Source: Deltaproteobacteria bacterium (GTDB lineage Bacteria; Desulfobacterota; Deferrimicrobia; Deferrimicrobiales; Deferrimicrobiaceae). Taken from it: a DNA stretch of 64,000 bases. The position numbers and the translations under genes were made by a program. The stretch spans positions 15,523 to 79,522 of the forward strand of contig JACRCO010000053.1 of assembly GCA_016218975.1 (NCBI GenBank), read 5' to 3'. Shown piece after piece: positions 186 through 54,331 of the stretch. Under the pieces are notes generated by a model that saw only the letters and a program-made list of their open reading frames with translations, made no database searches and was not told the origin of the DNA. Position 1 is the stretch's first letter. Each line of letters starts with the position of its first letter.

Positions 186-449
186 GTGTTACCTCCTTTT
201 TTGGTGGTTTTACGACCACTTGTATATACTTTGTATACACGGTGAGAACACCGTCTCACCTGGTGAAATTAACGACAAGGATAGATAATCCACTGCGAAA
301 TATAAGCATTCCCGCGCCTTAACTTCACGCATGTCCATAATTCAGCAATACGTGTGCCGATAAGTTGCCAGGAACATTTATTGCTGTACCGGTGGGCTAT
401 CATTTATGATGGCCATGTAAACAGACGATTCGGAAGGTATGAGCGTATT

Positions 450-902
450 ATGAAAAGGTCGTTGCTTACCTGTGTGTTTGCCGTCCTGTGCCTCGTCATG
501 TCTGAATGGAATACCGCGAATTCGTTCCCACGACCGGGAAAGGATCCGCAATCCATGCAGGGATGGCCTATCGTTTCGGGAACGGTCAACTGTCGCGAAC
601 GCGCCGATCTTCCCCGAACGGCTATGGTCCACGTCGAACTTATCGATTTATCGCAGAAGGATCCGACGAAGGCGTTATTGGGAGAAGAGTCGATCTGGCC
701 CGCAGGAATAAAGTTGCCCGTCACCTTCCGGATTCCGTACGACCCTTCGCGGATCGATCCGTCGCACATCTACGTTTTGCGCGCACGCATCACAGATGGC
801 GAGAAGACCTTGTTCGTAAGCTCGTCGATGTCGTACGTACTGACCAGGGGAGCGCCGAACATCGCCGATATCGTTGTCGTGCGGGTGATGATCCGTTATT
901 GA
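450..902 (+). CDS. YbaY-like secreted protein
   Basis: ORF 354..902 trimmed to ATG 450 (MKRSLLTCVFAVLCLVMS signal peptide). Architecture GTV...VHVELIDLS...IYVLRARITDGEKTLFV resembles the YbaY family. Confidence 0.5.
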   Translation: MKRSLLTCVFAVLCLVMSEWNTANSFPRPGKDPQSMQGWPIVSGTVNCRERADLPRTAMVHVELIDLSQKDPTKALLGEESIWPAGIKLPVTFRIPYDPSRIDPSHIYVLRARITDGEKTLFVSSSMSYVLTRGAPNIADIVVVRVMIRY

Positions 903-1338
903 ACCTGGCTTTTTATCAGGCGGCCGTACGGCAGGTGGCCTGCATTTCCAATAACGAAATAGAAGCTGTTTTGGGGGAATTCCCCGATCCACTGGGGAAA
1001 ATCACCCAATAGTTCCGGTCGGATCGCATCCCGCCCGAGTATTTTCTTTCGCCCTTCCATGCAGTCCCCCTCATACGGGGTTTACGGTTCTTCCCGCCGG
1101 AACGATCCGGGAGCGTGTATGCAATCGTAATCATTATATTTAAGGCTTGGCATCTATAGATGAAGTCCGTTCAGGCAAAGCGAACGGCCTGATTTGTCAA
1201 AGGAAAATAACTTCCCTTCTTTCCCTAAAATATCGGCTCCAGGCGGGACATCGTTCCCGGGTATGCATCTTGCTGTTTCCGCTGGTCCTGAAGTTTTAAC
1301 TGCCGCGAGTTACTTCGCTTTTTCATTCATGAAGGGGG

Positions 1339-4300
1339 ATGCAGATGGGAACGTTCACCGGATTGGATCATGCCATGTCGAAACGAAAGCGACGGGGGTG
1401 GACAGACCCGGTCATGCCCTTGTGCCTCGTACTTCTCTTTCTGTCGGTTGCAACAGCGCACGCACAGACAGGCATCTTCTGCGGGCCGACGGGAAGCGAA
1501 GCGATCCGCACCGACAAGTACGAATACCAGCCCGGCGAAGATGTCTACATAACCGGCACGGGCTTCCAGCCGCGCTGCGACGTATACGTCCGTGTGACGC
1601 GACCCGACGGGAAGGTCATGAAGGGCGACGGCACAACAACGCCGGGGATGGATATCGCAACAACCGACGATTCGGGAAATTTCGTCTCCGTATATGTCCG
1701 CCAGGGCAATTCCATCTCCGGGGAACACGTGGTCGATGTTCTGGACGGCGAAATAAACGTCGTCTCGTACTCCATCTTTTACAATCCCGAGCCTCCTGCG
1801 CCTCTCGCATGCCCCTTTACGGTCGATCCTTCGATCCCCGCGGACAACCTGGACGCGAGCACCTTCAAGACGATACAGTCCGCCGTCACCTATCTGCCCA
1901 ACCCCGGACCCTGCACGATCGAAGTGCTCCCCGGAACGTACGACGAGTTCGTAAACCTCGTAACGAAAAATACCGCCGCGGCCGACGAATCGCAGAGGAT
2001 CACGCTCGAAGCGCCGTACGGACCCGTCATCGTTGCCCCGAAAGTCCTGAATTCCGTCGGTTTCACATTGACCAATTCGAAATACATAACGATAACCGGC
2101 TTCACTGTGAAGGGAAGCAGCGTCCACAGAGGGATTTCGCTTAGCGGCGCAACCGGAAACTCCAACTGGGACATATCCATCGACGGGAATTTCCTGCAGG
2201 AAATCGGCACGCCTTCGGCCGCAGGGTCCGCCGGCATCGCGGTAGGATCGGGAAATCCGCGCACCTGGATAACCAACAACCTGATCAGGAACAACGCCAG
2301 GGGCGGCATCGACATTTCCAACGGGTCGGGCCCGACGTACATCGTCAACAACACGATTCACGGAAACGGATGGAACGGGATAACGCGGGCTTCCGGATCC
2401 GGAACCAATGCCGTGGCATCCATGATCAACAACCTGGTAACCGGCAACGGAGCCGCCGCGGACGTGGCATGGGGCAGGTGGGGGATTTACCAGTCCGGCA
2501 CCGGCAACGCCGCCCAGGCGACACTCCGGAACAACATGTTTTTCTACAACGGAGCTTACTCGGGAGGTGCGTTGTCCAGCGGCGGAGACATCTCGACCGC
2601 AGGGCTGCTCGATTCCACCGATTGGGACAATTACACGACGAACGGGCGCGCTTCCAGTTCATCCAGTCCGGCGACGGGCATCGCGGGGTGCATCTTCACG
2701 GACTGCTACCCATCCCACCTCTTCACGGAAATATATTCGGACACGGTGGATTACGTCCCGCTGAAGACCGCTTCCCTGTTATCGCCCGCCGTAGACAAGG
2801 GGCTTAACTCTTTCTACGACTCGGGATATGAATGGGTTCCGGCAGTCGATCTTTACGGCGGCCCCCGCGTACTGGACGGAGACGGGAACGGGACGGCCAT
2901 CGCGGACATGGGTTATTGCGAGGCTCCCGGAACCGATACGGCCCCGCCGGATACGATCATCGACAGCGGGCCTTCGGGGAGCGTAAATACGACATCGGCG
3001 ACTTTCACTTTCCATGCGACGGAACCCGGCAGCACGTTCCTGTGCAGCCTGGACGGCGGCGCGGAAGCCGCCTGCAACACCCGCTCCGCGAGCTACGGCG
3101 GCTTGACGGAAGGCAGCCACACTTTCTCGGTCCGGGCGACCGACGGTTCGGGAAACGCGGACCCGGATCCGGCGATCCGCACATGGACGGTCGATACGAC
3201 GCCTCCCGACACGATTATCGACACCGCTCCTCCATCGCCGGGAGGAGATACCGCCGCCTTTACGTTCCGCGCGACCGAGAGCGGAAGCACGTTCGAGTGC
3301 GGGATCGACGGCGGGCCGTTTACCGCCTGCACCAGCCCGAAATCGTATTCCGGACTGGCGGACGGCGGCCACAACTTCCAGGTGCGCGCAAAGGATCCGG
3401 CAGGCAACACCGACGCTTCGCCCGCCGTTTTTACCTGGACGGTGAACAACTTCCCCGATACTTTCATTACGATAAGTCCCCCGGCTATTTCCGGCAGCGG
3501 CAGCGCCGCATTCTATTTCACCGGGACCAAGGCGGGATCCAGCTTCGAGTGCAGCCTCGATGCCGCCGTTTTTGCGCCCTGTTCGAGCCCGGCAACCTGG
3601 TCCGGCTTGCAGGACGGCAGCCACTCGTTCTCCGTCAGGGCGATCGACGGAGCGGGCAAGATCGATCCGACTCCCGCAGCTTTCTCCTGGACGATCGACA
3701 CGGTTGCGCCGGACACGATCATCGACAGCGGCCCGGCCGATCCGGCCAACCTGCTGAGCGCGACCTTCACGTTCCGCTCGACCGAAGCCGGCGGCACGTT
3801 CGATTGCAGCCTTGACGGGGAAACGTTTTCAGCGTGTTCAAGCCCTAAAAGCTACATCGGTCTCGCTTCGGGGCCCCATACCTTCCAGGCAAGGGCAAAG
3901 GACGCGGCGGGCAACGCCGATCCATCGCCCGCCGTATCGAGCTTCAACTGGAGCGTCGACACGTCCACACTGACGGTCGTGACGGACGTGACGAAAACCT
4001 ACCAACCATATAACCAGGTGATTTACCTGACGGCCGCGATCAGTTCCTCCGCCGGACAGGTGAACGAAGGAAACGTGGTCTTCACGGTTAGGAACGCGTC
4101 ATCCACCGTGTTGGGGCCGATAACCTCGCCGCCGGTTTCCGGGGGAATCGCCACGACTTATACTATCCTTCCCGCCGGCACGCCTGCGGGCATCTACACT
4201 ATGGAAGCCAGGTACAGCGGCGGCCCTACATTCAAACCAGGCGTCGGGAACGGCGTACTGATCGTCAACCCGTGGCCCGCCACGATCACGTTGAGCAACC

Positions 4301-6423
4301 TGACCCGGAACTACGACGGCACGCCGAAGCAGGCAACCGTAACCACGAACCCGCCGGGGATCGCCGTCTCGGTGACATACGACGGCTCCGCATCTCCGCC
4401 GATAAACCCCGGCAGCTATGCGGTCGTGGCGTCCCTGGCCGATCCGAACTATGCGGGCCCGAATGCCGGCGGCGTGCTGAACATAATAGGGATGGCCGTT
4501 CCGGCGATTTCCTGGAACAACCCGGCGGACATCGTCTACCCGACTCCGTTGAGCAGCCTTCAGATGAACGCTTCCGCCGACGTTCCCGGCGCCTTCACCT
4601 ATGCGCCGTCCGCCGGAACGGTGCTCGATGCCGGCACGTCGCAGAGTCTGAGGGTCGATTTCGCGCCGGTGGACACCGCGAACTATATCGCCACATTCAA
4701 GGTCGTTTCGATCAACGTCCTGAAAGGAAGCCAGGCGATAAACTTCGGTCCTTTGGCGGACAAGGCATTCGGAGCCCCGGACTTCAACGTAACCGCGACC
4801 TCTTCATCGAACCTTCCCGTTACATTCGCCGCGAGCGGAAGCTGCACCGTCTCCGGGAACACTGTCGCCATAACGGGGGCGGGCTCATGCACCGTGACCG
4901 CATACCAGGCGGGAGACGCCAATTACAACCCCGCGCCTGAGTCGGCACAATTCTTCGACATCGCGAAGGCAACGGCGACGATTTCATTGGCCGGCCTTGC
5001 CCAGGTTTACGACGGCTCTCCCAAACCCGTCACCGCCTCCACCGATCCTCCCGGAGCGGGTTTCGTCGATATGACATATGACGGCCTGCCGGCGGCTCCG
5101 GCGGAAGCGGGCAGCCATACCTTAGTCGCATCGCTTGCAAGTTCGAATTACGAGGCTCCTGATGTCACCGCCACATTGCTGATTCTGAGGGCGGAGGCCG
5201 GCCAGGACCAGACGGCTGCCGAAAACAGCGGTGAGGTATCCATAGGCAGCGCGGCGAGCTTCGGAACGGTGTATGAATGGATCCAGCTTGCAGGGCCGCC
5301 CGCGGCGTTGAGCGATCCGGCGATTCCGTCCCCTTCCATTTTCGTTCCGTCGCTTGAAGGAGGCTTCGGATCTCAAGTCGTAACGTTCCGGTTGTCGGTG
5401 AGCGGCGGGGGCCTGTCGACATCGGATACGGTCAATATCACCGTCGTAAACGTCAATCACTCCCCCGTGGCCGAAACCGGCGGCGACCAGACCGTGAACG
5501 AAGACGCCGTCGTGACGCTCTCGGGAACCCATAGCTACGATCCCGACGGAGATACCGTCTCGTATCGATGGGTACAGACCGGCGGGCCTGCGGTGGCGAT
5601 CGCCGACGGAGATTCCGAATCCGTATCTTTCATGGCGCCATCGGTTCCCGGCGGCATCGGAGGGCGGGCCGTGTTGGCGTTCCAGCTCACCGTTTCGGAC
5701 GGCGAGCTCTCCGATACGGAAAACGTCGTCGTAACCGTCGAACAGGTCAACCACGTCCCGACTGCCGACGCGGGCGCGGACATGACCGTCAACGAAGGCA
5801 GTGAAGTTACGCTGAACGGCTCAGGCGCCGATCCGGACGGGGATTCCCTGGCCTATCGCTGGACGCAGACCGGCGGACCGGCCGTCGTCTTGACGGATAT
5901 CCAAAGCGCTTATCCATCCTTCACGGCGCCGCTCACGGGGCCGGGAGGCGCCACGCTGGCGTTCAGTCTCGTCACGAGCGACGGGGCTGCCGAAAGCATC
6001 CCGGACACGGTTACGGTCGCGATTCTCAACATCAACGATCCTCCGGTATGCAACCTTGCCCGTGCGAATCCGGAACTTCTCTGGCCGCCGAACCACAAGC
6101 TCGTCGAGGTCGGAATCACGGGTGTAAACGATTCCAACAACGATTCCGTGAAAATTACCGTAACAGGCGTCATGCAGGACGAGCCGGTGAACGGCCTCGG
6201 GGACGGAGACACGGGTCCGGATGCCGTCTTGCAGGGAGATAAGGCGCTGTTGCGCGCGGAACGGTCGGGAAGCGGGAACGGAAGGGTTTACAGGGTCGAC
6301 TTCGTGGCGGAGGACAATAACGGAGGATCGTGCACGGGATCGGTCCGCGTGACCGTTCCACAGAACATGGGGCGGGGAAAAACCGCGACCGACGACGGCC
6401 AGTCCTATGTATCGACGAACTAA
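1339..6423 (+). CDS. Giant secreted protein (about 1,690 aa): N-terminal right-handed beta-helix (NosD/pectate-lyase-like), four tandem ~86-aa Cys-pair domains, Ig/MBG-like and cadherin-like (VCBS/PKD-like) repeats
   Basis: Long ORF with RBS GAAGGGGG just upstream (best spaced for the second ATG at 1345). Signal peptide MSKRKRRGW..LFLSVATAHA. Beta-helix signatures (NNLIRNNARGGIDISNG, NNTIHGNGWNGI). Repeated DTII..TFTF..GSTF.C.LDGG..C.SP.SY.GL.DG.H.F.VRA.D..GN.D.SPA. Later repeats NHSPVAETGGDQTVNEDAVVTLSG..DPDGD. Confidence 0.85.
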   Translation: MQMGTFTGLDHAMSKRKRRGWTDPVMPLCLVLLFLSVATAHAQTGIFCGPTGSEAIRTDKYEYQPGEDVYITGTGFQPRCDVYVRVTRPDGKVMKGDGTTTPGMDIATTDDSGNFVSVYVRQGNSISGEHVVDVLDGEINVVSYSIFYNPEPPAPLACPFTVDPSIPADNLDASTFKTIQSAVTYLPNPGPCTIEVLPGTYDEFVNLVTKNTAAADESQRITLEAPYGPVIVAPKVLNSVGFTLTNSKYITITGFTVKGSSVHRGISLSGATGNSNWDISIDGNFLQEIGTPSAAGSAGIAVGSGNPRTWITNNLIRNNARGGIDISNGSGPTYIVNNTIHGNGWNGITRASGSGTNAVASMINNLVTGNGAAADVAWGRWGIYQSGTGNAAQATLRNNMFFYNGAYSGGALSSGGDISTAGLLDSTDWDNYTTNGRASSSSSPATGIAGCIFTDCYPSHLFTEIYSDTVDYVPLKTASLLSPAVDKGLNSFYDSGYEWVPAVDLYGGPRVLDGDGNGTAIADMGYCEAPGTDTAPPDTIIDSGPSGSVNTTSATFTFHATEPGSTFLCSLDGGAEAACNTRSASYGGLTEGSHTFSVRATDGSGNADPDPAIRTWTVDTTPPDTIIDTAPPSPGGDTAAFTFRATESGSTFECGIDGGPFTACTSPKSYSGLADGGHNFQVRAKDPAGNTDASPAVFTWTVNNFPDTFITISPPAISGSGSAAFYFTGTKAGSSFECSLDAAVFAPCSSPATWSGLQDGSHSFSVRAIDGAGKIDPTPAAFSWTIDTVAPDTIIDSGPADPANLLSATFTFRSTEAGGTFDCSLDGETFSACSSPKSYIGLASGPHTFQARAKDAAGNADPSPAVSSFNWSVDTSTLTVVTDVTKTYQPYNQVIYLTAAISSSAGQVNEGNVVFTVRNASSTVLGPITSPPVSGGIATTYTILPAGTPAGIYTMEARYSGGPTFKPGVGNGVLIVNPWPATITLSNLTRNYDGTPKQATVTTNPPGIAVSVTYDGSASPPINPGSYAVVASLADPNYAGPNAGGVLNIIGMAVPAISWNNPADIVYPTPLSSLQMNASADVPGAFTYAPSAGTVLDAGTSQSLRVDFAPVDTANYIATFKVVSINVLKGSQAINFGPLADKAFGAPDFNVTATSSSNLPVTFAASGSCTVSGNTVAITGAGSCTVTAYQAGDANYNPAPESAQFFDIAKATATISLAGLAQVYDGSPKPVTASTDPPGAGFVDMTYDGLPAAPAEAGSHTLVASLASSNYEAPDVTATLLILRAEAGQDQTAAENSGEVSIGSAASFGTVYEWIQLAGPPAALSDPAIPSPSIFVPSLEGGFGSQVVTFRLSVSGGGLSTSDTVNITVVNVNHSPVAETGGDQTVNEDAVVTLSGTHSYDPDGDTVSYRWVQTGGPAVAIADGDSESVSFMAPSVPGGIGGRAVLAFQLTVSDGELSDTENVVVTVEQVNHVPTADAGADMTVNEGSEVTLNGSGADPDGDSLAYRWTQTGGPAVVLTDIQSAYPSFTAPLTGPGGATLAFSLVTSDGAAESIPDTVTVAILNINDPPVCNLARANPELLWPPNHKLVEVGITGVNDSNNDSVKITVTGVMQDEPVNGLGDGDTGPDAVLQGDKALLRAERSGSGNGRVYRVDFVAEDNNGGSCTGSVRVTVPQNMGRGKTATDDGQSYVSTN
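2941..3966 (+). repeat. Four tandem ~255-270 bp coding repeats inside the giant secreted protein gene
   Basis: Protein-level repeat units start at about 2941, 3199, 3448 and 3703. Each encodes a PDTIID...TFTF...C...C...VRA.D..GN.D module. Confidence 0.7.
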
Positions 6424-6470: not shown

Positions 6471-6506
6471 CCTCGCGGGGTGCCCCTCGCGGGGTACCCC
6501 GCGAGG
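6471..6506. terminator. GC-rich palindrome between convergent genes (possible bidirectional terminator)
   Basis: cctcgcgggg-ta-ccccgcgagg is a perfect 10-bp inverted repeat at 6485..6506, preceded by a direct copy of cctcgcgggg (6471..6480). Lies between the + gene ending 6423 and the - gene ending 6524. No clear U-tract. Confidence 0.35.
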
Positions 6507-6523
6507 CGTGCATAGCACCTCCC

Positions 6524-7426
6524 CTACTCGACGATCGTGAACGCCTCGACCCGGTTGTTCCCACGGTCCGCGATGAAGACGTTGCCGATTTCGTTGACGC
6601 ACATGTGTGCGGGGTAGCGGAGAAAGCCGTCTTTCCATCCCATGCTCAAACGCCGTCCGCGCACTGCGCCGTCTTGCCCGAGGATAAGAATGCCGCCGCC
6701 GTTCTGGTCCACCAGGTAGATGTTGCCCCTCCCGTCCGCGGCGATCGAAACCGGGAAATACGCGTCCTCCTTCAGGCTGGCCGATAACGGCAAAACGGCC
6801 GCGGAATCTTTCGCCGCCTTGTACACTCTCCCCTGCACGCTGTCTACCAGGAGGATGTTCCCGCCCGAATCGACGGCAAGATCGGAGAAGAAACCGTACT
6901 CCTTCGGGAACGGGATCTGGCGCTGCATCTTGCCCGCGGGATCGAGCACCAGTATCCGGGCTGAAAACACGTCGAGAACGAAGAGGTTGTCGTTTTTATC
7001 GATCCGGAAGCTCCTCGGCACGACAGCGCCTTGGACATCGCCCGAAACGGCGATGTACCCCTGGAACTCGCCCGAGGGAGAAATGCGGGCGATCCTGCGC
7101 ACCTTCCCGTCGAGAACGAAGATCTCACCCCTGGAATTCGCCTCCGCCCGGATGGGATTGGGCAATTGGGGCAGAACGATTTCGGCTCCCGGGGTCCAGC
7201 TCCCTTCCGACATCGCGTACCGCAGGATCCGGCCGTTCCCGGTATCGGCTACAAGCAGGGATCCGCCCCTGCAGCCGACGCCTTCGGGAAGCTTGATCCC
7301 CGCTCCCTTGCCGTCCACGTAAACTGGAGCGTTCATCCTGAATTTGACGGCCTCCGCGGCATGGCCGTCGGCGCCCGCGGCAAGGAGCACCGCCGCGAAC
7401 AGGGCCGCTTTCGGTATATTCCGCAT
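6524..7426 (-). CDS. NHL-repeat protein, secreted
   Basis: ORF 6524..7690 trimmed to ATG 7426 (MRNIPKAALFAAVLLAAGADGHA signal peptide). Repeated NHL-like blades (GNIYLVDQNGGGILILG, GNVFIADRGNNRVEAF). Confidence 0.8.
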   Translation of the reverse strand: MRNIPKAALFAAVLLAAGADGHAAEAVKFRMNAPVYVDGKGAGIKLPEGVGCRGGSLLVADTGNGRILRYAMSEGSWTPGAEIVLPQLPNPIRAEANSRGEIFVLDGKVRRIARISPSGEFQGYIAVSGDVQGAVVPRSFRIDKNDNLFVLDVFSARILVLDPAGKMQRQIPFPKEYGFFSDLAVDSGGNILLVDSVQGRVYKAAKDSAAVLPLSASLKEDAYFPVSIAADGRGNIYLVDQNGGGILILGQDGAVRGRRLSMGWKDGFLRYPAHMCVNEIGNVFIADRGNNRVEAFTIVE

Positions 7427-7431
7427 CCTGG

Positions 7432-8703
7432 TCACCTCTTGTATTTCTCGTGGCACTGAACGCAAAGATCCATCTTTATGTCGTAATGCACGAACCGCTT
7501 GTGCCCGGAGCCGTGGTTGCTGTGGCAGCTCTCGCAATCCATGCCGAGATTCCTGTTCCGCTTGTCGACCACCTTTTCGCCGATGGGATGGCTTGAGTGC
7601 TTCTGCCAGTCGTGGCACGCGCCGCACACGTTGATCGTGCTCGCGTTGTCCATAAGGAAAACGGAATTGGATGAGTGCGGCCTGTGGCACTTGGTGCAGT
7701 TACCCTCCTGAACGGGCTTGTGCTTTGTGAGGGATTTCTCCTGCTTCTCGATGGTATCGCGGTGGCATTCGCCGCACAGGGCCAGTTGGGGGCCTTTAAG
7801 AAGTGCGCTTTCCTTCGAGGCGTGCGGGTTGTGGCAATTCCCGCATGAGTTCCTGTCAAGCACGGGCCAGTGCATCCGGTTCCTGCCGAACGTCTCGTTC
7901 ATCATGTTGTTGTGGCATCCCCGGCAAAGTTCGTACCCGGCCTTCCTGGTCTTCAGCGCATCGGGGGAAGCCGCATCCTGGTGGCACTGGCTGCACATTT
8001 TATTGACGACCGGCTGGTGCCCTTTCCCGAGGAACATCCCCCGGCTGCCGGACCCGTGCGGGTCGTGGCACGATGTGCACCGCGATTTCGCCACGGGATA
8101 TCCCATATGCTGCTTTCCGAAGGATGGGGTTTCCGTCCTGTGGCATTTGACGCATATGCCCGGGACGTCTTCCTTGAGCAATGCCCGGGCATTAGATGAC
8201 GCATGGGGGTTATGGCAGTTGAGGCATCCCTTCTCCACGGGACTGTGCTTGAATTTGTTCCCGGCCACCGCCTTCGCGACGCTTTCATGGCAGCCGAAGC
8301 ACAGCTCGTTGCCCGCCCGCAGAAGGTTGTTCCTGTTCGCGGCCGCATGGGGGTCATGGCATTTTACGCAATTCCCCTCGACCGCCGGCCTGTGGGCGCT
8401 CGGCGCCTTGTCCGGAACGATCCCGTCGTGGCAGGAAAAACAGATCTTCTTCACGTCGTCCGCAAGGAGCTTTCCATGGGTGGAAGTGTGCGGATTGTGG
8501 CAGTCGGAGCAATCTCCCTTCTTTACCGGCGTGTGGAGAAACGGGAGCTTAAGCTTGTCCTTGAAGGTTTCGTGGCAGGTCACGCAGACTTTACCTTTCG
8601 CCCCCGGCTTGAGGCGGAACTTGTCCTGGGAGTGCGACAGGGAGACCGCCCCCAGGGATACGATCGCAAGGAGAACCAGTGCGAATTTGGTTCGAAGCGT
8701 CAT
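7432..8703 (-). CDS. Multiheme cytochrome c, 16 CxxCH motifs
   Basis: ORF trimmed to ATG 8703 (MTLRTKFALVLLAIVSLGAVSLS signal peptide). I counted 16 CxxCH motifs with regular c7-like spacing. Confidence 0.9.
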   Translation of the reverse strand: MTLRTKFALVLLAIVSLGAVSLSHSQDKFRLKPGAKGKVCVTCHETFKDKLKLPFLHTPVKKGDCSDCHNPHTSTHGKLLADDVKKICFSCHDGIVPDKAPSAHRPAVEGNCVKCHDPHAAANRNNLLRAGNELCFGCHESVAKAVAGNKFKHSPVEKGCLNCHNPHASSNARALLKEDVPGICVKCHRTETPSFGKQHMGYPVAKSRCTSCHDPHGSGSRGMFLGKGHQPVVNKMCSQCHQDAASPDALKTRKAGYELCRGCHNNMMNETFGRNRMHWPVLDRNSCGNCHNPHASKESALLKGPQLALCGECHRDTIEKQEKSLTKHKPVQEGNCTKCHRPHSSNSVFLMDNASTINVCGACHDWQKHSSHPIGEKVVDKRNRNLGMDCESCHSNHGSGHKRFVHYDIKMDLCVQCHEKYKR

Positions 8704-8716
8704 GTCTTCTCCTCTG

Positions 8717-10702
8717 TCATCGCTTTTCCGCGATATGGCATTCGTCGCAGGACCGGCCGGCGAAAGGCGCGTGCACATTTTCCTTGAAGAACTTGGGGTC
8801 CTTCGAAGCGTGCGGATCGTGGCAACTGCGGCAGTCGATCGCCGCCGGGTCTATATTCAGATGCGCCTTGCCGAAGGACGCATCCTTCACATTGTGGCAC
8901 TCGCCGCACAGCGCCTGCACGGGCTGCGACAGGAGAGCCGCCTGGCCGGAGTAGTGAGAGGCATGGCACCGCAGGCAGTCGCGTACGGCCGGGGAGTGGC
9001 CCTTTTCCTTCTGCATCTTCTCCTTCAGATTCCTGTGGCAGGTAAGGCACAGATCGGGAGATTCCACGAGCAGAAGCTTCGAAAGCTTCGACTTGTGCGG
9101 GCTGTGGCATTTTGTGCACTCTCCGCCCGATACCGGCTTATGCCCGCTTTTCCCGGCTTTCAACCCGTCCTTCAGGTCCGAGTGGCACTCGAAGCATACC
9201 TTGTCCTGCTTCGCGACGATCATCCCCGCGATGTTCGACGCGTGAGGATCGTGGCAGGTCAGGCATTCCCCGCCCTTGAAGGGGTCGTGGACCGTGCCCC
9301 CGGCGACCTCTTTCATCAGGTCTCCGTGGCAGTTCGCACAGAGGGCGGATCCGGCCTTGCGCACCAGTTTCTTTTCCTCCGATCCGTGCGCGAAGTGGCA
9401 CGCTGTGCAGTTGCCTATCATTACCGGCCGGTGGATGTTTCGCTTGAGGAAGTTCGACTCCGAGTCGGAGTGGCACCCGTAACAGACCTTGTCGGTCCGG
9501 TCTTTGAGGATCGCCGGAAGATCCGACCCGTGCGAATCGTGGCAGGATGCGCAATCCCCCTTGGCGAACGGCTCGTGCCGTGTTTTCGCTTTCTCAGCAG
9601 TCCTGACCTTCGCATGGCAGGAATAGCAAAGTTCCCCTACCCCTGCGGAAAGAAGTCCCTTGTTCTTCGCTGCGTGGGGCTTATGGCAGGAAAGGCACCC
9701 CTTCCCTTTATCGACCGCGGCGTGGGGCCTCGAAACCGTTTTCCCCTTTTCGGCGTGGCATTCCACGCAGAGCCCGTTCCCTTTCCTGGCAAGGAGTTTC
9801 GGGTTTACGGAAGAATGGGGATCGTGGCAGGATGTGCACTCGCCCTCCTTGAAGGGATTGTGCAGCACCGTTCCGTCCGCCTTCAGCTTCGCCTCGTCAT
9901 GGCACTGGTAGCAGAGCTTGCTCCCCTTCTCCGTCGCCGCGAAGGGCTTTTCGGACGTCGGTGACGGATGGCATGCATCACAGCTTTTTTCGACGACGGG
10001 GTTGTGGGCGCTCGCTTTCATCAGCTTCGGCCGGGAAGAGGAGTGCGGGTCGTGGCAACCTGTGCAGGAGGCGGACTCCACGGGATAGTTCCCGTGCGCT
10101 TTCCTGAATCCCCCCTTTCCCGCGTCGTGGCAGGAAAGGCAAAGAGGCGTCTTCGCCTTCACGAGCAGGTCGTTCTCGCCGGAGCCGTGCGGATTGTGGC
10201 AGGCGCGGCACCCCTCCTTTTCGAGCACGGCATGCTTCACATTCTGCGTGTACGCCTCTTTCTTGTGGCACTGGAAGCAGGCTTCCGATCCTTCCGCTTT
10301 CAGCAGGTGGCTTCCCTGGGAGGCGTGCGGGTTGTGGCAGGAGGTGCATTTGCCGGTTTTCAACGCCGTGTGGACCTTGGGGCGGTTCAACCCGACCTTT
10401 TCCTTCGCGTGGCATGCGTAGCAGATCTCGTTCCCTTCCTTTTTGAGGAGGAGCTTGGGGACGATCCCGTGACGAAGATGGCAGTCCTCGCACTTCCCCT
10501 GCTTGACGACGGCGTGGACGTCCTTCATCGAGAGATACTTGTCCGCGAACTTCTTGTGGCAATCGAGACATCCCTTCCGCTCGAACTTCCGTTGCTGCGC
10601 CCACGAGGAACCCTGGTGGAAAAGTGCCGCAGCCCCTCCAAGGAGCAGGAAAATTCCAAGGATGGTCAAAATCCTTTTTCGAAAGGCTGTCCTCATACGC
10701 AC
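8717..10702 (-). CDS. Multiheme cytochrome c, 26 CxxCH motifs
   Basis: 661-aa ORF with a signal peptide (RILTILGIFLLLGGAAALF). I counted 26 CxxCH motifs. It sits 14 bp upstream of the 16-heme gene. Confidence 0.9.
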   Translation of the reverse strand: MRMRTAFRKRILTILGIFLLLGGAAALFHQGSSWAQQRKFERKGCLDCHKKFADKYLSMKDVHAVVKQGKCEDCHLRHGIVPKLLLKKEGNEICYACHAKEKVGLNRPKVHTALKTGKCTSCHNPHASQGSHLLKAEGSEACFQCHKKEAYTQNVKHAVLEKEGCRACHNPHGSGENDLLVKAKTPLCLSCHDAGKGGFRKAHGNYPVESASCTGCHDPHSSSRPKLMKASAHNPVVEKSCDACHPSPTSEKPFAATEKGSKLCYQCHDEAKLKADGTVLHNPFKEGECTSCHDPHSSVNPKLLARKGNGLCVECHAEKGKTVSRPHAAVDKGKGCLSCHKPHAAKNKGLLSAGVGELCYSCHAKVRTAEKAKTRHEPFAKGDCASCHDSHGSDLPAILKDRTDKVCYGCHSDSESNFLKRNIHRPVMIGNCTACHFAHGSEEKKLVRKAGSALCANCHGDLMKEVAGGTVHDPFKGGECLTCHDPHASNIAGMIVAKQDKVCFECHSDLKDGLKAGKSGHKPVSGGECTKCHSPHKSKLSKLLLVESPDLCLTCHRNLKEKMQKEKGHSPAVRDCLRCHASHYSGQAALLSQPVQALCGECHNVKDASFGKAHLNIDPAAIDCRSCHDPHASKDPKFFKENVHAPFAGRSCDECHIAEKR

Positions 10703-10723: not shown

Positions 10724-12415
10724 CTACCTGGCGAGGGGTTTCACGATCCTGTCGAGCTTGTCGCCGGTGGCATAAATCTTCACTTCCGATGCCTTCCTCA
10801 GCTTCTCTTCCCAATCCCGAAGCGTCCGTTGGCGTTTATCGAGGAACAATTTCTGCCGGATGCCGTCTTTAACCGATTCGTATTTCTGCGGCTGCGGGGG
10901 AAAAACTTCACGGACGTACAACACGTAAGCGGGTCCTTCCGCTTCCGAATAAATCCGGAAATCCCCGCCGGTCGCCCCCGAGACCGCCTTTCGCGCTCCT
11001 TCCGGCAATTCCGTCACGATCATCGTCCCGCCGAATCGAAGCAGGTTTTCCGCCTTGGCCGGATCCACCCTGCCGTCGGCGTTCTCTTTCGTCCAAATGA
11101 AATCCGCGCCCTTCCGCAGCTTTTCGACAGCGTCCTCCGCATCCGCCCTCTTGTGAAAGGCGATGCTGTCCATCCGCATCATCTCCGGAGTCGTGTATTC
11201 CGCGATATGACCCTTCAGGTACTCCCTGATTTCCGCTTCGTCCACCTTGATTTCCGGGTCGATCGCTTTCCTGACGAACGTCCCGAACACCAGTTCGTTC
11301 CTGTAGCCATCGACCCGGGTCTTAAAAAACTCCGCCCGGTCCAGTTTTTTCAGTCTCGCCTCCTTGAGCGCGACCCGCCTTGCGAGGATCTCGTCGAGGA
11401 CAACAGGTTTCCTTTTGTTTATTTTCTTTTTCTCCGCCGCCTTTTCCGCACCGTGAAAGAATTTCCGCTGAAGCGCCGTCGTAAGGTCGGCCACCGTGAC
11501 GGGCGCCTCTCCCTTCACCTTCGCCACGACGCGCTTGTCCTCGAGCAGTTTTTCGAACCCCGGCTGAATCGAGTCGTAATCGAGGCCATCGAGGATCTTA
11601 CCGTTCACCTTCACATATTTTTTCTTGAGCTCTTCCGAGTATTTGCCGAGAACGACGACCCTTTTTGCCTTCAAGGCTTCCATTCCGGCCTTCTCTTTCG
11701 CCGCCGGATCGTCAGGGTAACGTACCCCCTCGAACTTGAGCATCGAGTAATGGTTCCCCACCTTTATCAGAGGGCTTATTTCGCCGGCCTTCATGGAAGA
11801 AACGGCGGCCGCCACATCGGGAGACAACGATTCGAATTTCATGTACCTGCCTTCCAGGCTCCCTTTCGCCTCTCCGGCGTCGAGCATCCGTTTCGCGGCG
11901 GATTCGAAATCCCTTCCGGACTTCACCTCGGCTTCCAGCCGCTTTCCTGTCTCCTCTTTCTCCATGAGCACGGACTTGACCTTGACCTCCTTGACTGTTT
12001 CGCGGTAAAGCCTGTCGATTTCCTTCTTGTCCCCCTTCTTCACGTTTTTAACCCGTTCTCCGTACAACATTCCTCTCAACGACTCTTCCTCGTAAGCCTT
12101 TACCGCCGCCGTCACCTCCGTCAATGAGTCCAGGCCTATATTCCGCGCTTCCTGCAGGATGAGCTTCGCGTTTATTATCCGTTCCAGTATCGCCGACGGG
12201 CTGGAGTGCGCCTTCGCCGAATTGTCGGACACTCCTTCGTGAATGGATGCAAGCACGTTGTAGAATTCATGGAGAGTGACCGGCTCGCCGTTGACCGAGG
12301 CAAGGGCTGGTTTTCCGCCGATTTCAGGCAGCTTCGGGTCTGCGGCGCCCCCTTCGATCGCGGCGAATGCCAGGAAACACACCACGATCGTCAACAGGAA
12401 ACATATTTTTCTCAT
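10724..12415 (-). CDS. SurA-N-domain periplasmic chaperone-like protein (SurA/PpiD family)
   Basis: ORF trimmed to ATG 12415 (MRKICFLLTIVVCFLAFAAIEG signal peptide). Lys/Glu-rich chaperone-like sequence with SurA-N-like motifs. No clear parvulin signature seen. Confidence 0.65.
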   Translation of the reverse strand: MRKICFLLTIVVCFLAFAAIEGGAADPKLPEIGGKPALASVNGEPVTLHEFYNVLASIHEGVSDNSAKAHSSPSAILERIINAKLILQEARNIGLDSLTEVTAAVKAYEEESLRGMLYGERVKNVKKGDKKEIDRLYRETVKEVKVKSVLMEKEETGKRLEAEVKSGRDFESAAKRMLDAGEAKGSLEGRYMKFESLSPDVAAAVSSMKAGEISPLIKVGNHYSMLKFEGVRYPDDPAAKEKAGMEALKAKRVVVLGKYSEELKKKYVKVNGKILDGLDYDSIQPGFEKLLEDKRVVAKVKGEAPVTVADLTTALQRKFFHGAEKAAEKKKINKRKPVVLDEILARRVALKEARLKKLDRAEFFKTRVDGYRNELVFGTFVRKAIDPEIKVDEAEIREYLKGHIAEYTTPEMMRMDSIAFHKRADAEDAVEKLRKGADFIWTKENADGRVDPAKAENLLRFGGTMIVTELPEGARKAVSGATGGDFRIYSEAEGPAYVLYVREVFPPQPQKYESVKDGIRQKLFLDKRQRTLRDWEEKLRKASEVKIYATGDKLDRIVKPLAR

Positions 12416-12494
12416 GTCATTGCCTTCCGTGGGATACCCGGGATTGTCGACTGTGTGCATTTTAACAAAGAATGATTCTCGGTATTGAAATAAA

Positions 12495-18126: not shown

Positions 18127-19395
18127 TCAGTCCTTCGCGTGGCACTTGTTGCAGAACACACGCTGATACGTCGCAAACTGTGTTACCGGCCTGTCATAGT
18201 ATGCCGTCTTCCACTCGGCCATCGTCCGGCCGCGGTGCTGGAGCGGTGCACGGGAACTGGTCATGGCGGGGTTGTCGCTTCCCAGGTAATTCGAAGCGAC
18301 TGTCATGAATTCATAGCCGTTGTCGTAGCGAAGCATTTCCGCCACGCCGGAGGCATGCGCCCTGTGGCAGGACAGGCACATGACCTGGTCGGTGCTTCCC
18401 GGACCCGCTTTGAGGGCGGAGGAGCCGTTGTTTCCGGCAAGAGCCGCAAGGGCCGTGTAATCGCCGCTGTTCGTCGCGAACGGAGCAAGGGACGAGAACG
18501 CGGTCGCCGAGGTTCCGGTCAGGTCGCCGGATTTTACATAGGAGTTGTAGTTGGCTGCAATGGTGCTGCCGAGCGATTCATCGACCGGGTGCACGTAGTT
18601 GCCGCTGGAATGCATGGCGCCGTGGCAGGTCGCGCACCACTGCCCCCAGGTTACGTGCCCGCTGGCCGTGGCGACACCGTATGCTACGCGGACCTGGTTG
18701 TCGGCCTCGGTCTGGTTGTAGGACGACGGGGCCTTGGCGGCGGGAACGCCGTTGAAGGTTATCCCGTCTTTCGTGTATCCCGCGCCGGCCAGGAGCCTGT
18801 ACACGCCGACCGCCTCGGTCGCCGTAGGCTCGTTGCTGGTGCCGTTATAGGAACCGGAAGCCTTTATGGGTGCTCCGGTCTTCGCGATCGTGCCGCTCTG
18901 GAGTCTCCTGTACTGGCCGTGAGGGTCATGGCAGGAATTGCAGGCGAGCTGCGCGGAGGGGAATGTCCCGCCCGGGGCCGCGGCATTGATCGGATCCACT
19001 ACGTATCCGAAGTCGCCCGCGATGATGTTGTGGCCGTGGATCGCGCCATCCTCGGTATTGGTAGTACCCTGATACGTATAGGTGTAGGTCTTCCTCAGCC
19101 AGCCGAAGTCGCCGCCGGGAGTCCGGTTCACGGGCGACACGCCGTCGCCCATGGCGGAGGCGGTGGTGCTGATATGGTAGCTCGACAGCGTGGGCCCGTC
19201 GTGGCAGGTAAGACACGTGGAGCTCTGGTCCCCTCCGACAAGCAGGAAGGACCCGCCAGCCTTGGGGCTGTGCATGCTGTGGCAGCCTTCGCACTCGGCG
19301 ACGCCGCCCGAATGGAACGCGTAAGCCGTGGTGCCCATTCCGACCGCAAAAAGCGCGGCCGATAGAACGATAAGTGTGATCTTTGCCGCTTTCAT
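18127..19395 (-). CDS. omcS: OmcS-family hexaheme c-type cytochrome (nanowire-type)
   Basis: The mature N-terminus AFHSGGVAECEGCHSMHS matches my recollection of G. sulfurreducens OmcS (FHSGGVAECEGCHTMH). Conserved TPGGDFGW, GHNI, CNSCHDPHGQYRR, CLSCHRAHASG, YQRVFCNKCHAKD. Six CxxCH motifs. RBS GGAGGAGAA. Confidence 0.85.
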   Translation of the reverse strand: MKAAKITLIVLSAALFAVGMGTTAYAFHSGGVAECEGCHSMHSPKAGGSFLLVGGDQSSTCLTCHDGPTLSSYHISTTASAMGDGVSPVNRTPGGDFGWLRKTYTYTYQGTTNTEDGAIHGHNIIAGDFGYVVDPINAAAPGGTFPSAQLACNSCHDPHGQYRRLQSGTIAKTGAPIKASGSYNGTSNEPTATEAVGVYRLLAGAGYTKDGITFNGVPAAKAPSSYNQTEADNQVRVAYGVATASGHVTWGQWCATCHGAMHSSGNYVHPVDESLGSTIAANYNSYVKSGDLTGTSATAFSSLAPFATNSGDYTALAALAGNNGSSALKAGPGSTDQVMCLSCHRAHASGVAEMLRYDNGYEFMTVASNYLGSDNPAMTSSRAPLQHRGRTMAEWKTAYYDRPVTQFATYQRVFCNKCHAKD

Positions 19396-19417
19396 TTCTC
19401 CTCCTTCAGTTCTCCGG

Positions 19418-19500
19418 CAGCCCGGCCGTCCTTGCCTAACGCAAGCACCCGTTGGCTTTGTGCCCCCGCCTTGCGACAGGTTTACCTTTTTCGGAGGAGT
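19418..19500 (-). promoter_or_regulatory. GEMM-I (c-di-GMP/cGAMP class) riboswitch candidate in the omcS-like leader
   Basis: Minus-sense GGUAAACC-UGUC[GCAA]GGCGGG-GGCACAAAGCC aligns with the GEMM-I P1 (GNRA tetraloop) and the conserved GGGACGCAAAGCC region. A P2 hairpin GCUUGC-GUUAG-GCAAG follows. The RBS follows directly. Confidence 0.65.
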
Positions 19501-20589: not shown

Positions 20590-20817
20590 GGCGAATCGTT
20601 ATCAGCAAGCCATATGCCAATCCAAATATAGGCATATTGGCCTTATATAACGACATGTTATGAGTTGCAGATTTCCGAAGGGACCGTTTTACGGGGAAAT
20701 AACGAGTGCAGCTTGGGGTTTTCACCGATGCCGGCTGATTTCAACAAACTGTCATATTTTTGACGCTTTGATATAAATTCCCACTATCGACCTTCCGAAA
20801 TATCCACGGGAGGCGCC

Positions 20818-22086
20818 ATGAAAACAATTTCGGACACCCCCTTATCGGCGGCATTCGTCATGACTGCACTTCTGGTTGCCTTCCCCATTCATCGAGCGGC
20901 AGCGTTCCACGCAGGAGGCGTGGGTGAGTGCTCAGGATGCCACTCCTCCCACAGCGCGGGGGCAAACAATCCCTTCCTTCTCGTTTCGGGCGACCCGAGT
21001 TCCACATGCCTCATGTGCCACATGCAGGCAGGAGAAACAGCCCCGAATGCGCATCACGTGGCAACCGACGAGTCGGACATGCCCTCAGGATCCCCTCCCG
21101 TACAGTTGACCCCCGGCGGAGATTTCGGATGGCTTAAGAAAAATTACAAATGGAATGCGGCCGACGGAGGGCCGGGCGGACAGAGCGCCGGCGAGCGGCA
21201 CGGGCATAACATCGTGGCAGCCGTTTACGGATTCGCGGCGGACACCACGCTGACGGCCGCCCCGGGGGGCGCCTACCCCGCAGCCGGTCTGTCCTGCACA
21301 AGCTGCCATGACCCCCACGGAAGATATCGCCGCCTGGCGGACGGAACCATACAATCCAAGGGATCGCCGGTAGTCGATTCTGGGTCGTACAAAACCAGCC
21401 CGGATCCCACGGAGACGACTGCGGTCGGCGTTTACAGGATGCTCGGCGGCAAGGGATACTCAAGGCCCGGGGCAAGCGAAACGTTCAACTTCGATCCTCC
21501 CGCGGCTGTCGCCCCGCCGGATTACAACCGGTCCGAAAGCGGTTCCGACACGCGGGTCGCCTACGGCGGCGGCATGTCGGAATGGTGCACGAATTGCCAC
21601 GGAGCCTACACCGGGAACCGCAACGCGCCCGGCCACCCGGCTGGAAGCCTCGTCAAGATGACGCCTCGCGCCGTCTCGAATTACAACGCATACGTGTCCT
21701 CCGGAAACGTCACCGGAACTTCTTCGACCGCCTACACGTCCCTCGTGCCGTTCGAAATGGGCACTTCCGATTACGCTCTCCTGAAAAAAGCGGCATCCAC
21801 GGACGGTTCGATGAAAGCGGGGCCGGATACCAACTCCAACGTGATGTGCGTCTCCTGCCACCGGGCGCACGCCTCCGCATGGGACCAGGCGGCCCGCTGG
21901 AACATGAAATCCGAATTCATCCTTTACAACGGAGACTATCCGGGCGCGGACAGGACCGATCTGCCCTTACGCATGTCACAGGGTCGCACGAAGACGGAAA
22001 CCAGGCGCGCTTACCATGAAAGACCGCCGATCGCTTTCGCGAGCTACCAGCGGACACTCTGCAACAAGTGCCACACCATGGATTGA
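20818..22086 (+). CDS. OmcS-family hexaheme c-type cytochrome, paralog
   Basis: AAFHAGGVGECSGCHSSHS, LTPGGDFGWLKK, GHNIVA, CTSCHDPHGRYRR, CVSCHRAHAS, YQRTLCNKCHTMD. RBS GGGAGG. Six CxxCH motifs. Confidence 0.85.
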   Translation: MKTISDTPLSAAFVMTALLVAFPIHRAAAFHAGGVGECSGCHSSHSAGANNPFLLVSGDPSSTCLMCHMQAGETAPNAHHVATDESDMPSGSPPVQLTPGGDFGWLKKNYKWNAADGGPGGQSAGERHGHNIVAAVYGFAADTTLTAAPGGAYPAAGLSCTSCHDPHGRYRRLADGTIQSKGSPVVDSGSYKTSPDPTETTAVGVYRMLGGKGYSRPGASETFNFDPPAAVAPPDYNRSESGSDTRVAYGGGMSEWCTNCHGAYTGNRNAPGHPAGSLVKMTPRAVSNYNAYVSSGNVTGTSSTAYTSLVPFEMGTSDYALLKKAASTDGSMKAGPDTNSNVMCVSCHRAHASAWDQAARWNMKSEFILYNGDYPGADRTDLPLRMSQGRTKTETRRAYHERPPIAFASYQRTLCNKCHTMD

Positions 22087-22263: not shown

Positions 22264-22279
22264 AGGCATATAAATTGCT
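22264..22279 (+). promoter_or_regulatory. Sigma-54-like -24/-12 element (AGGCAT-N5-TTGCT)
   Basis: GG at 22265-66 and GC at 22277-78 have canonical spacing. The -12 GC lies ~14 nt upstream of ATG 22292, implying a nearly leaderless transcript. That is unusual. Confidence 0.3.
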
Positions 22280-22990: not shown

Positions 22991-24375
<1,385 letters not shown>

Positions 24376-24379
<4 letters not shown>

Positions 24380-43536: not shown

Positions 43537-43556
43537 TGCATCCTCCGAAGTTTTCT

Positions 43557-43640
43557 CTGGCGGCCCGGCCGTCCTTCCATCGAAGGATCCGTGGGCTTTG
43601 CGTCCCCCGATTACTCGAGGTTTGCCTTTTTCAGAGGATT
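43557..43640 (-). promoter_or_regulatory. GEMM-I (c-di-GMP/cGAMP class) riboswitch candidate in the leader of the family-B hexaheme gene
   Basis: Minus-sense GGCAAACC-UCGA[GUAA]UCGGGG-GACGCAAAGCC aligns base-for-base with the Vc2-type GEMM-I P1 and core. P2 hairpin UCCUUC-GAUG-GAAGGA covaries with the 19418..19500 copy. The P1 overlaps the stop codon of the upstream NHL gene. Confidence 0.7.
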
Positions 43641-44675: not shown

Positions 44676-44786
44676 GACGCCCAAAGGTTTTGCATCGGGC
44701 ATGCCGCTTGCCCACGCCACCTGCAACCGCCCGATAATTCAAAGGGTTTAAAAAATCAGTCGAGACCGGTTACCCTCCTCGAAATC

Positions 44787-53172: not shown

Positions 53173-53210
53173 CTGCCGTTCCTCCGTGGAATGTATATTC
53201 GTCATGTTCG

Positions 53211-54116: not shown

Positions 54117-54331
54117 CAAACCGAACCTCCTTTGTCTGTGCGTTTCTATCGATCGATCCCGAAAAGCTTCAACTGCTTCCTGAGATGTTGAAAAAAACAA
54201 TTTTGATTTATCCAGAGGGATTCTCAGCAATCGGCATGCCGATTATGGCAGGCGGAAGCGCTGACGAATTTTCAAACTATTATCGAAAGGTTAGGGGGCG
54301 AATGACTGAGACGTCTCACTGCAGGCAAGTT

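Follow-up and report, generated by a model that had tools for sequence, protein, structure and literature searches.

A long modular, fibrillar-adhesin-like protein of an uncultured deltaproteobacterium, predicted to be secreted and ending in a widespread cadherin-like domain

Introduction

Fibrillar adhesins have a canonical layout of an N-terminal head, a stalk and a C-terminal anchor (Monzon, Lafita & Bateman 2021, PMC8286594), and about half of them are without a known anchor (PMC8286594). OmpL47 of Leptospira, after which an NCBIfam domain model is named, is surface-exposed, as judged by proteinase K treatment, immunofluorescence and biotinylation (PMC2698987). Here, we describe a gene at 1339..6423 on the forward strand of a 64,000-nucleotide stretch of contig JACRCO010000053.1 (the window), which stems from an uncultured deltaproteobacterium of sediment or groundwater. 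The gene encodes a large protein that an earlier note, made from the sequence alone, had described as a giant secreted beta-helix protein with four tandem Cys-pair repeats.

Like fibrillar adhesins, this protein is a long single polypeptide with a signal peptide, an N-terminal head, a tandem immunoglobulin (Ig)-like stalk and a distinct C-terminal end, and its 1692 amino acids with about 12 beta-sandwich domains after the head make it the long multidomain protein with a tandem stalk that is expected of this class. Unlike them, it contains no recognised adhesive domain or anchor, its stalk is built from several families and not from one near-identical unit, and its surface location is predicted only. 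We lean, with slightly better than even confidence, towards a Sec-exported, modular, fibrillar-adhesin-like surface protein of about 175 kDa with head, stalk, a terminal anchor candidate and sigma-54 control. In such a protein, the N-terminal unit of an Ig-like domain and a right-handed beta-helix would form the head, which would bind, and possibly cut, extracellular polysaccharide. A stalk of about 12 beta-sandwich domains (four Cys-pair modules, three further Ig-like domains, two MBG_3 and three PKD domains) would hold the head out from the cell, and attachment or targeting to the cell surface would fall to the terminal cadherin-like domain, the best candidate for this role. Transcription would start at a sigma-54 promoter, with an activator bound at a conserved upstream palindrome.

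In most respects, this is a fairly ordinary representative of the large, modular, adhesin-like proteins that bacteria secrete, put together from domain types that are common. What sets it apart most is the terminal domain, which the earlier note had overlooked.

Results and discussion

The open reading frame (ORF) is uninterrupted over 1694 codons (1339..6423, +; stop codon at 6421..6423, +). A Shine-Dalgarno motif read from the sequence, AAGGGGG (1332..1338, +), touches the first ATG (1339) and lies 6 nt ahead of the second ATG (1345), which it serves. Because of this spacing, translation very probably starts at 1345, which gives 1692 amino acids (residues are numbered here from the first ATG). 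The NCBI record MBI5576031.1 describes the same protein with 1692 amino acids, i.e. from the second ATG, on a contig of 276 kb, under the name "right-handed parallel beta-helix repeat-containing protein" from a Deltaproteobacteria metagenome-assembled genome (MAG). The gene is genuine, and the earlier note had delimited it correctly. Orthologs occur in other assemblies, two of them full-length (P0002 and P0003, 64-65% identity) and one partial (P0048, 77%). Our three-ortholog alignment consists of three full-length proteins, and a near-identical 1694-aa cluster member was left out.

The predicted protein begins with a Sec signal peptide (aa 3-42, 1345..1464, +), recognised by inspection from its KRKRR n-region, hydrophobic core and predicted cleavage site AHA|Q; equivalent signals in the three-protein alignment end in SAA|Q and SWA|Q. 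Secretion, as proposed before, is thus indicated by a Sec-type signal whose form is kept in the orthologs. The protein has 20 cysteines. Apart from one within the signal peptide and the non-conserved C527, they fall into nine pairs. In the three-ortholog alignment, 16 of these 18 are invariant, and an insertion in P0002 displaces the first cysteine of the terminal domain. So many paired, mostly invariant cysteines fit a protein that folds outside the cytoplasm, in an oxidising compartment. Signal peptide and cysteines together support an extracytoplasmic protein that would be exported by the Sec route. The recognisable domains all belong to families typical of surface or secreted proteins (Big_13/OmpL47-type, Big_3_5, MBG_3 and PKD). 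We checked for a mapping of the domains to an intracellular enzyme family, the finding that the earlier note had named as speaking against its proposal, and this does not apply.

Domains were called by Pfam and NCBIfam scans of the whole protein and of excised regions. Their order is signal peptide, Ig-like domain, beta-helix, four Cys-pair modules, Big_3_5-like Ig domain, MBG_3, HYDIN/ASH-like Ig domain, Big_3_5-like Ig domain, MBG_3, three PKD domains and terminal domain.

The four tandem modules cover nt 2944-3966, measure 83-87 aa each and carry two cysteines at fixed positions (C-x9-C), just as had been reported. They comprise module 1 (aa 536-621, 2944..3201, +), with one extra residue after the second cysteine, module 2 (aa 622-704, 3202..3450, +), module 3 (aa 705-789, 3451..3705, +), which begins with FPDTFIT and is the most divergent copy, and module 4 (aa 790-876, 3706..3966, +). 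The earlier note had suggested from similarity at the DNA level that the array expanded recently, a proposal that our comparison contradicts. The modules share 47-61% amino-acid identity and 55-66% nucleotide identity with each other, only about half of the residues that are identical between modules share their codon, and Tandem Repeats Finder reports no DNA tandem array of about 255 bp. Across the three orthologs, identity is 62-72% (mean 66) between modules at the same position and 45-61% (mean 52) between modules at different positions, which indicates that the four-module array predates the split of these lineages. Judged from these sequence comparisons, the array is old and has not been homogenised since the lineages diverged. 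Repeat number, proposed as a variable trait, is constant at four in all three full-length proteins compared.

Far from being peculiar to this protein, the module ranks with the most frequent repeat types, and stalk modules, of bacteria, so that four copies are a modest number, a point that had also been missed. A profile built from 12 copies (three orthologs with four modules each) and scored against 1.84 billion representative proteins matched 42,899 proteins at an expectation value (E) of <=1e-3, 26,627 at E<=1e-10 and 8,364 at E<=1e-30, and arrays in the matched proteins reach 45-49 copies. Of 2,523 copies from the 150 best other proteins, 2,366 have both cysteines, 131 have neither and 26 have a single one. 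Cysteines thus occur as both or neither in 2,497 of the 2,523 copies, which is the pattern that a disulfide predicts, and the pair is invariant in 12/12 copies of the three orthologs. The module is very probably a disulfide-braced sandwich of the Ig or fibronectin type III (FnIII) kind. The covarying cysteines and weak profile matches to Ig/FnIII-type domains agree with the disulfide-stabilised Ig-like domain that had been envisaged. A profile search of the PDB with the module gave weak matches to the BIg domains of SiiE (E 0.008), the FnIII domain of chitinase A1 (ChiA1, E 0.019) and Y_Y_Y. Read from the weak FnIII alignment, the two cysteines would lie on the neighbouring C and C' strands.

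Existing models cover the module only in part. The whole protein passes the cut-offs of Big_13 (46.2 versus 27 bits) and of the OmpL47-type model NF047446 (51.5 versus 40), the nearest NCBIfam model to the modules and named after OmpL47, only by summed partial matches. Single modules stay below both, with at most 20.7 bits for Big_13 (module 1; cut-off 27) and at most 21.2 bits for the OmpL47-type model (module 2; cut-off 40). Big_13, Y_Y_Y and NF047446 cover mainly the second half of the module ('Y.GL.DG.H.F.VRA.D.AGN'). With Big_13 (PF19077) and OmpL47-type (NF047446) repeats, the modules share the '(S/T)Y.GL.DG.H.F.VRA.D.AGN.D' half, but their match is confined to the C-terminal half to three-quarters of these models, and their N-terminal 'PDTxI..GP....A.F.F' segment with the C-x9-C hairpin sets them apart as a subfamily without a model of its own. 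A dedicated model for this half-covered module would improve the annotation of giant bacterial proteins.

The head begins with an Ig-like beta-sandwich (aa ~45-150, 1471..1788, +) with the Cys pair C48/C80, which AlphaFold2 models as all-beta over residues 1-103 with a predicted local distance difference test (pLDDT) score of 56-84 and which has no Pfam or NCBIfam match. It is followed by a right-handed parallel beta-helix (aa ~158-535, 1810..2943, +), in which NNxI..NG..G repeats form an Asn ladder and SPAxD.G...R...D.G..E marks a C-terminal cap. The cut-off of Pfam Beta_helix (PF13229), 25.9 bits, is passed by a small margin, with 26.0 bits for the whole protein and 29.6 for the excised aa 158-535. 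The AlphaFold2 model of the head (mean pLDDT 74, predicted template-modelling score 0.79) shows regular stacked short strands from residue 148 to 374, with a pLDDT of 80-94 in the beta-helix core and a low-confidence cap. The alignment behind it is shallow, as a homolog search with the head alone added only six proteins and left it at 12 sequences, and the cap is modelled poorly for this reason. Between them, the Pfam score above the gathering threshold and the stacked strands of the model establish the beta-helix fold, as had been predicted. With about 12 homologs in all, the head represents a rare family. The Ig-like domain and the beta-helix are kept as one block in P0011, P0016 and P0017, and the beta-helix occurs alone in P0025, P0029 and P0050-53.

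What this head does is best approached through its fold. In a Foldseek comparison with the PDB, the matches were almost entirely beta-helix proteins, at E ~1e-4 or weaker and 10-16% identity. They include the polysaccharide lyase family 9 (PL9) enzyme Pel9A (1ru4, template-modelling (TM) scores 0.43/0.51), a PL9 rhamnogalacturonan lyase (5olq), PL6 alginate lyases and a K1 capsule lyase, as well as glycoside hydrolases of families GH87 and GH28, pectin methylesterases and phage tailspikes. The head shares a right-handed parallel beta-helix of similar length with PL9 and PL6 lyases and with the depolymerases of phage tailspikes, but differs from them in its 10-16% identity, TM scores of at most 0.51, missing sequence match and lack of identified conserved catalytic or Ca2+ residues. 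A search of the whole protein sequence against PDB chains gave no match, nor did the head match any Pfam or NCBIfam enzyme family. Invariant positions of the 12-sequence head alignment are mostly ladder Asn (NN motifs) and Gly, plus conserved Trp; a catalytic, Ca2+-site or binding residue cluster (Asp, Lys/Arg as in PL1/PL6/PL9) is not evident by eye in this alignment, a reading made without structural superposition. By analogy to these structural neighbours, carbohydrate recognition by the head is plausible.

The resemblance to NosD that had been noted for the N-terminal part is only partly borne out, since the NosD family PF05048 is precomputed for some homologs but MBI5576031.1 itself has no NosD match at E<=1. 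Among the neighbours scanned in the window there are no nos genes (nosZ/F/Y-type, nosZDFY context).

The protein closes with a cadherin-like beta-sandwich of 127 aa (aa 1568-1694, 6040..6420, +) with one conserved Cys pair and the motifs PPxC, LWPPNHK, QDEPxNGxGDGxTxPDA, LRAERxGxGNGRVY, AxDxxGxxCxG and DDGQxYxS. It has no match in Pfam or NCBIfam and none among PDB sequences even at E<=10, and a literature search on it returned nothing relevant. In structure prediction, the domain appears as a seven-strand sandwich, with cadherin extracellular (EC) domains and modules of SraP as the best fold matches. It shares this seven-strand sandwich with cadherin EC domains and bacterial cadherin-like modules such as SraP. 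An NxNDPP linker, LRAER (compare LDRE) and AxDxxG are motifs that we take to be cadherin-style. The cadherin-like domains postulated earlier therefore hold for the last 127 aa, by fold alone; Cadherin_4 (PF17803) stays below its cut-off (24.4 versus 25.1), and the region concerned consists of three K319L-like PKD domains (130 bits).

This domain is widespread. A profile from four copies found at least 4,327 proteins at E<=1e-3 (8,000 candidates scored), and proteins made up solely of the domain have no Pfam entry on record. A genome scan confirmed at least 493 loci with the domain, 80 of which were kept for closer comparison; across these, identity to our domain is 53-66%, with two split matches at 48-49%. 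The MAGs that carry it are labelled Deltaproteobacteria, Planctomycetota, Nitrospirota, Nitrospinota, Acidobacteriota, Verrucomicrobiia, Methylomirabilota, Rokubacteria, Tectomicrobia, Gamma- and Betaproteobacteria, Chloroflexi and Actinomycetes, the domain as a whole is spread over at least twelve phyla, and cultured carriers are Geomonas paludis, G. propionica and Nitrospira moscoviensis. Both cysteines are present in 184 of the 195 copies scored at both positions.

The WPPNHK motif lies 108-116 residues from the protein end in the motif-bearing proteins listed, and in the 80 loci the domain closes the ORF within 0-3 residues, with few exceptions. It follows unrelated passengers, namely DUF7948 with SBBP propellers, RCC1 repeats, BNR-like regions or the three-PKD cassette alone, in carrier proteins that have signal peptides. 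It is also the best-conserved part of our protein, at 69-75% identity in the orthologs compared with about 65% overall. Since the domain is strictly terminal, has diverse passengers, occurs in several copies per genome and is more conserved than its passengers, its properties fit an attachment or targeting module, for which it is the best candidate in this protein.

In these properties, the terminal domain resembles C-terminal sorting and anchoring domains (Por_Secre_tail/CHU_C of the type IX secretion system, PEP-CTERM, MYXO-CTERM and LPXTG), which are likewise strictly C-terminal, follow many passengers, occur in multiple copies per genome and are more conserved than what precedes them. It differs from them by lacking a transmembrane helix or a sortase-type motif, by its hydrophilic tail (...DDGQSYVSTN), by spanning phyla without conserved neighbouring machinery and by remaining unmatched by their models. 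No dedicated neighbour gene emerged around the 80 loci, where the best real cluster includes 14. The largest neighbour cluster at these loci was rejected as it consisted of antisense shadow ORFs.

A tentative idea, to which we give a minority chance, is that the terminal 127 aa represent a previously undescribed, Ca2+-dependent, cadherin-like C-terminal module by which bacteria of many phyla attach secreted proteins to their surface or target them there. If it were true, the protein would belong to a large class of anchored surface proteins that has gone unrecognised, and the domain would partly close the 'no known anchor' gap in fibrillar adhesins. Whatever its function, the domain has no curated model despite ending more than 4,300 proteins, including those of cultured Geomonas and Nitrospira moscoviensis. 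Its binding target, once shown, would explain surface-protein display in many environmental bacteria.

Several details of the carriers deserve mention. Several genomes hold multiple genes with the terminal domain (loci L004/L013, L016/L051, L038/L060 and L064/L079/L080), and two adjacent genes at L080 (3166-6390 and 6510-10370) both end in it. The nitrite oxidisers Nitrospira moscoviensis, Nitrospira sp. NS4 and Nitrospina (L030, L059 and L064) combine a signal peptide, DUF7948, an SBBP beta-propeller, PKD (not in L059) and the terminal domain. In the ortholog P0002 (L082), a 52-aa insertion just after PPVC, between the last PKD and the terminal domain, holds extra degenerate WP.NH copies (IPWPKNHRLAWK, IPWPRNPEL), which look like a partial duplication of the beginning of the terminal domain.

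Between modules and terminal domain, the stalk continues with a Big_3_5-like Ig domain (3967..4260, +; Pfam Big_3_5 E 1.4e-7, 32.4 bits, below the 35.5 cut-off) and a first MBG_3 domain (4279..4485, +; PF18887, 91.7 bits). An Ig-like domain with weak, sub-threshold Pfam similarity to the HYDIN/ASH type (4486..4725, +; E ~0.007) has its boundaries set by the flanking domains. Next comes a second Big_3_5-like Ig domain (4726..4974, +; E 0.005, sub-threshold), which has many local homologs at 40-50% identity and a Cys pair, C1169/C1184, that is invariant in the orthologs. A second MBG_3 domain (4975..5193, +; PF18887, 65.9 bits) brings the two to a total of 127.5 bits, above the gathering threshold, and thereby bears out the MBG-like domains reported before; a VCBS domain, suggested alongside them for annotation, found no match in the Pfam scan. 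Three K319L-like PKD domains (5194..6039, +, boundaries approximate; PF22352, 130.2 bits in 3 stretches) end in the cadherin-style NxNDPP linker. This region aligns to the PKD part of NF038112, and several other proteins likewise have this three-PKD cassette ahead of the terminal domain. On the whole, the domain calls of the earlier note were mostly right.

The control of the gene was approached by aligning the upstream regions of four orthologs. Two near-invariant islands stand out from otherwise diverged intergenic DNA, at 973-1009 and at 1260-1277. The second contains the core GGTATGCATCTTGCTGTT, almost invariant in the four orthologs, with the GG-N10-GC spacing and the TTGC of sigma-54 promoters, and corresponds to a putative sigma-54-type -24/-12 element, GGGTATGCATCTTGCT (1259..1274, +). 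The first (973..1009, +) comprises a perfect palindrome, GGGGAATTCCCC (974-985), and a related half-site, GGGGAAAATCACCC (994-1007), and is a candidate enhancer (upstream activator sequence) to which a sigma-54 activator might bind. The exact palindrome occurs once in the window; near-matches elsewhere in the window are at chance level and define no regulon. A sigma-70 promoter scan upstream of the gene found none.

Sigma-54-type elements recur in the window. Matches to TGGYAYRNNNNTTGCW with at most one mismatch number 5 against 1.19 expected, a count that 0 of 100 shuffles reached. The other four lie at 344-359(-), 20604-20619(-), 22264-22279(+) and 54226-54241(-), and the gene at 22991-24379(-) codes for a sigma-54 activator that has a receiver domain. 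The genomic island may thus be largely RpoN-controlled, as far as can be read from these motifs. A leader hairpin with a T-run, GCGAGTTACTTCGC TTTTTCATTC (1305..1329, +), was found in a scan for terminator-like structures between the sigma-54-type element and the ribosome-binding site. About 0.9 such sites are expected by chance in the region. The closest ortholog retains most of the hairpin, which might act as an attenuator or a stabilising stem. The 436-bp leader contains no known RNA or riboswitch, the sole match being sX13 at a chance-level E of 0.6.

The surrounding window has the style of an extracellular-electron-transfer island. It encodes at least six multihaem c-type cytochromes (Paired_CXXCH_1), the largest with 1049 aa and about 19 paired-CXXCH stretches, and an outer-membrane porin of the MtrB/PioB type (PF11854, E 2.5e-130). 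Library scans place these cytochrome and porin genes at 7432-8778(-), 8717-10702(-), 18127-19395(-), 20818-22086(+), 27748-30897(-), 42139-44742(-) and 50698-53553(-). Our gene had been called the only large plus-strand gene in the window, which is correct for its size, but the gene at 20818..22086 (+) is a real cytochrome gene on the same strand. Other genes of the island encode an NHL-repeat protein (6524-7690), a SurA-like peptidyl-prolyl isomerase (10724-12460) and propellers of the YncE-like and PD40 types. Two aptamers of cyclic di-GMP-class riboswitches pass Rfam gathering scores: a c-di-GMP-I-GGC variant (60.8 bits, 19412-19495(-)) directly upstream of the cytochrome gene 18127-19395, and a c-di-GMP-I aptamer (62.2 bits, 43556-43636(-)) inside the ORF listed as 42139-44742, which suggests that this ORF is over-extended at its 5' end.

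The gene described here is convergent with the nearest cytochrome operon and forms a separate transcription unit. On its own strand, about 440 bp upstream, lies a gene for a YscW-family lipoprotein (354-902(+), PF09619, E 9e-26). A YscW-like gene is kept upstream in the contig of the closest relative (L081 8078-8434, 74% identity) and is not upstream in the contig of P0003, where the ORF in this place is unrelated. P0002 is the one ortholog contig with downstream sequence; there the next gene encodes a methyltransferase, and synteny with the cytochrome island is absent.

Against this background, how probable is a role other than that of an adhesin-like protein? The protein could be a secreted polysaccharide-degrading enzyme, with the beta-helix as lyase or hydrolase catalytic domain and the Ig-like domains as spacers or carbohydrate-binding accessories, as in multi-domain carbohydrate-active enzymes or phage depolymerases. 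We regard this as unlikely. The top structural neighbours of the head are all enzymes (PL9, PL6, K1 capsule lyase, GH87, GH28 and pectin methylesterases), and models of secreted M36 peptidases, through their PKD part, also match the PKD region; yet the likeness of the head stays at the level of the fold, without a solved structure found by sequence, an enzyme family or the conserved Asp/Lys/Arg cluster of the PL1/PL6/PL9 kind. Enzyme stalks are also typically shorter than a dozen or so domains. A contribution to the adjoining electron-transfer apparatus, by mineral contact or by organising outer-membrane cytochromes, seems improbable. It draws on the cytochrome, porin, NHL and propeller genes in the window and on a regulation that may be shared, given the enriched sigma-54-like elements and the activator gene; however, the gene is convergent with the nearest cytochrome operon, is followed by the methyltransferase gene in P0002 and has only the YscW-like gene as a conserved neighbour, in the closest relative alone. 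Moreover, the protein has no haem-binding motif or metal-binding domain, and the same domain types occur in organisms without such a metabolism. The mineral contact proposed earlier relied on the adjacency of the cytochrome and porin genes and is not sustained. It is quite improbable that the protein stays in the periplasm as a NosD-like accessory or scaffold: several head homologs carry precomputed PF05048, and Pfam and NCBIfam scans revealed no outer-membrane translocation signal, but the NosD match and the nosZ/F/Y-type neighbours are missing, as described above, and a chain of a dozen or so Ig-like domains would, judged by their number, be hard to fit into the periplasm. An S-layer or S-layer-associated structural protein, also raised in the earlier note, is highly improbable, with no S-layer homology (SLH) or other S-layer anchoring domain in Pfam and NCBIfam and with fold matches to S-layer proteins no better than to dozens of unrelated Ig-like domains. 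Mixed-family domains and an enzyme-like head are, besides, atypical of self-assembling lattice proteins.

The fibrillar-adhesin-like reading that we prefer has to face several observations that weigh against it. Pfam and NCBIfam scans recognise no adhesive domain or ligand, the head family alignment presents no obvious catalytic or binding residue cluster, and the fold and disulfide geometry of the modules are deduced from weak profile matches and Cys covariation. RTX repeats, an autotransporter barrel, PEP-, MYXO- or GlyGly-CTERM, a type IX tail (Por_Secre_tail/CHU_C) and SLH remained unmatched in the same scans. With no known anchor or signal for secretion to the surface present, no established route across the outer membrane of a diderm is indicated, and the protein could stay periplasmic. 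The terminal domain lacks a conserved neighbour (best 14/80 loci), and its presence in MAGs labelled Actinomycetes and Chloroflexi argues against its recognition by a machine specific to the outer membrane.

At its 3' end, the gene is followed by a 100-bp gap that separates it from the convergent NHL-repeat gene. A search for a canonical intrinsic terminator downstream of the stop codon was negative. The gap contains a 14-bp unit, CCTCGCGGGGTGCC, repeated 2.9 times at 6471-6511.

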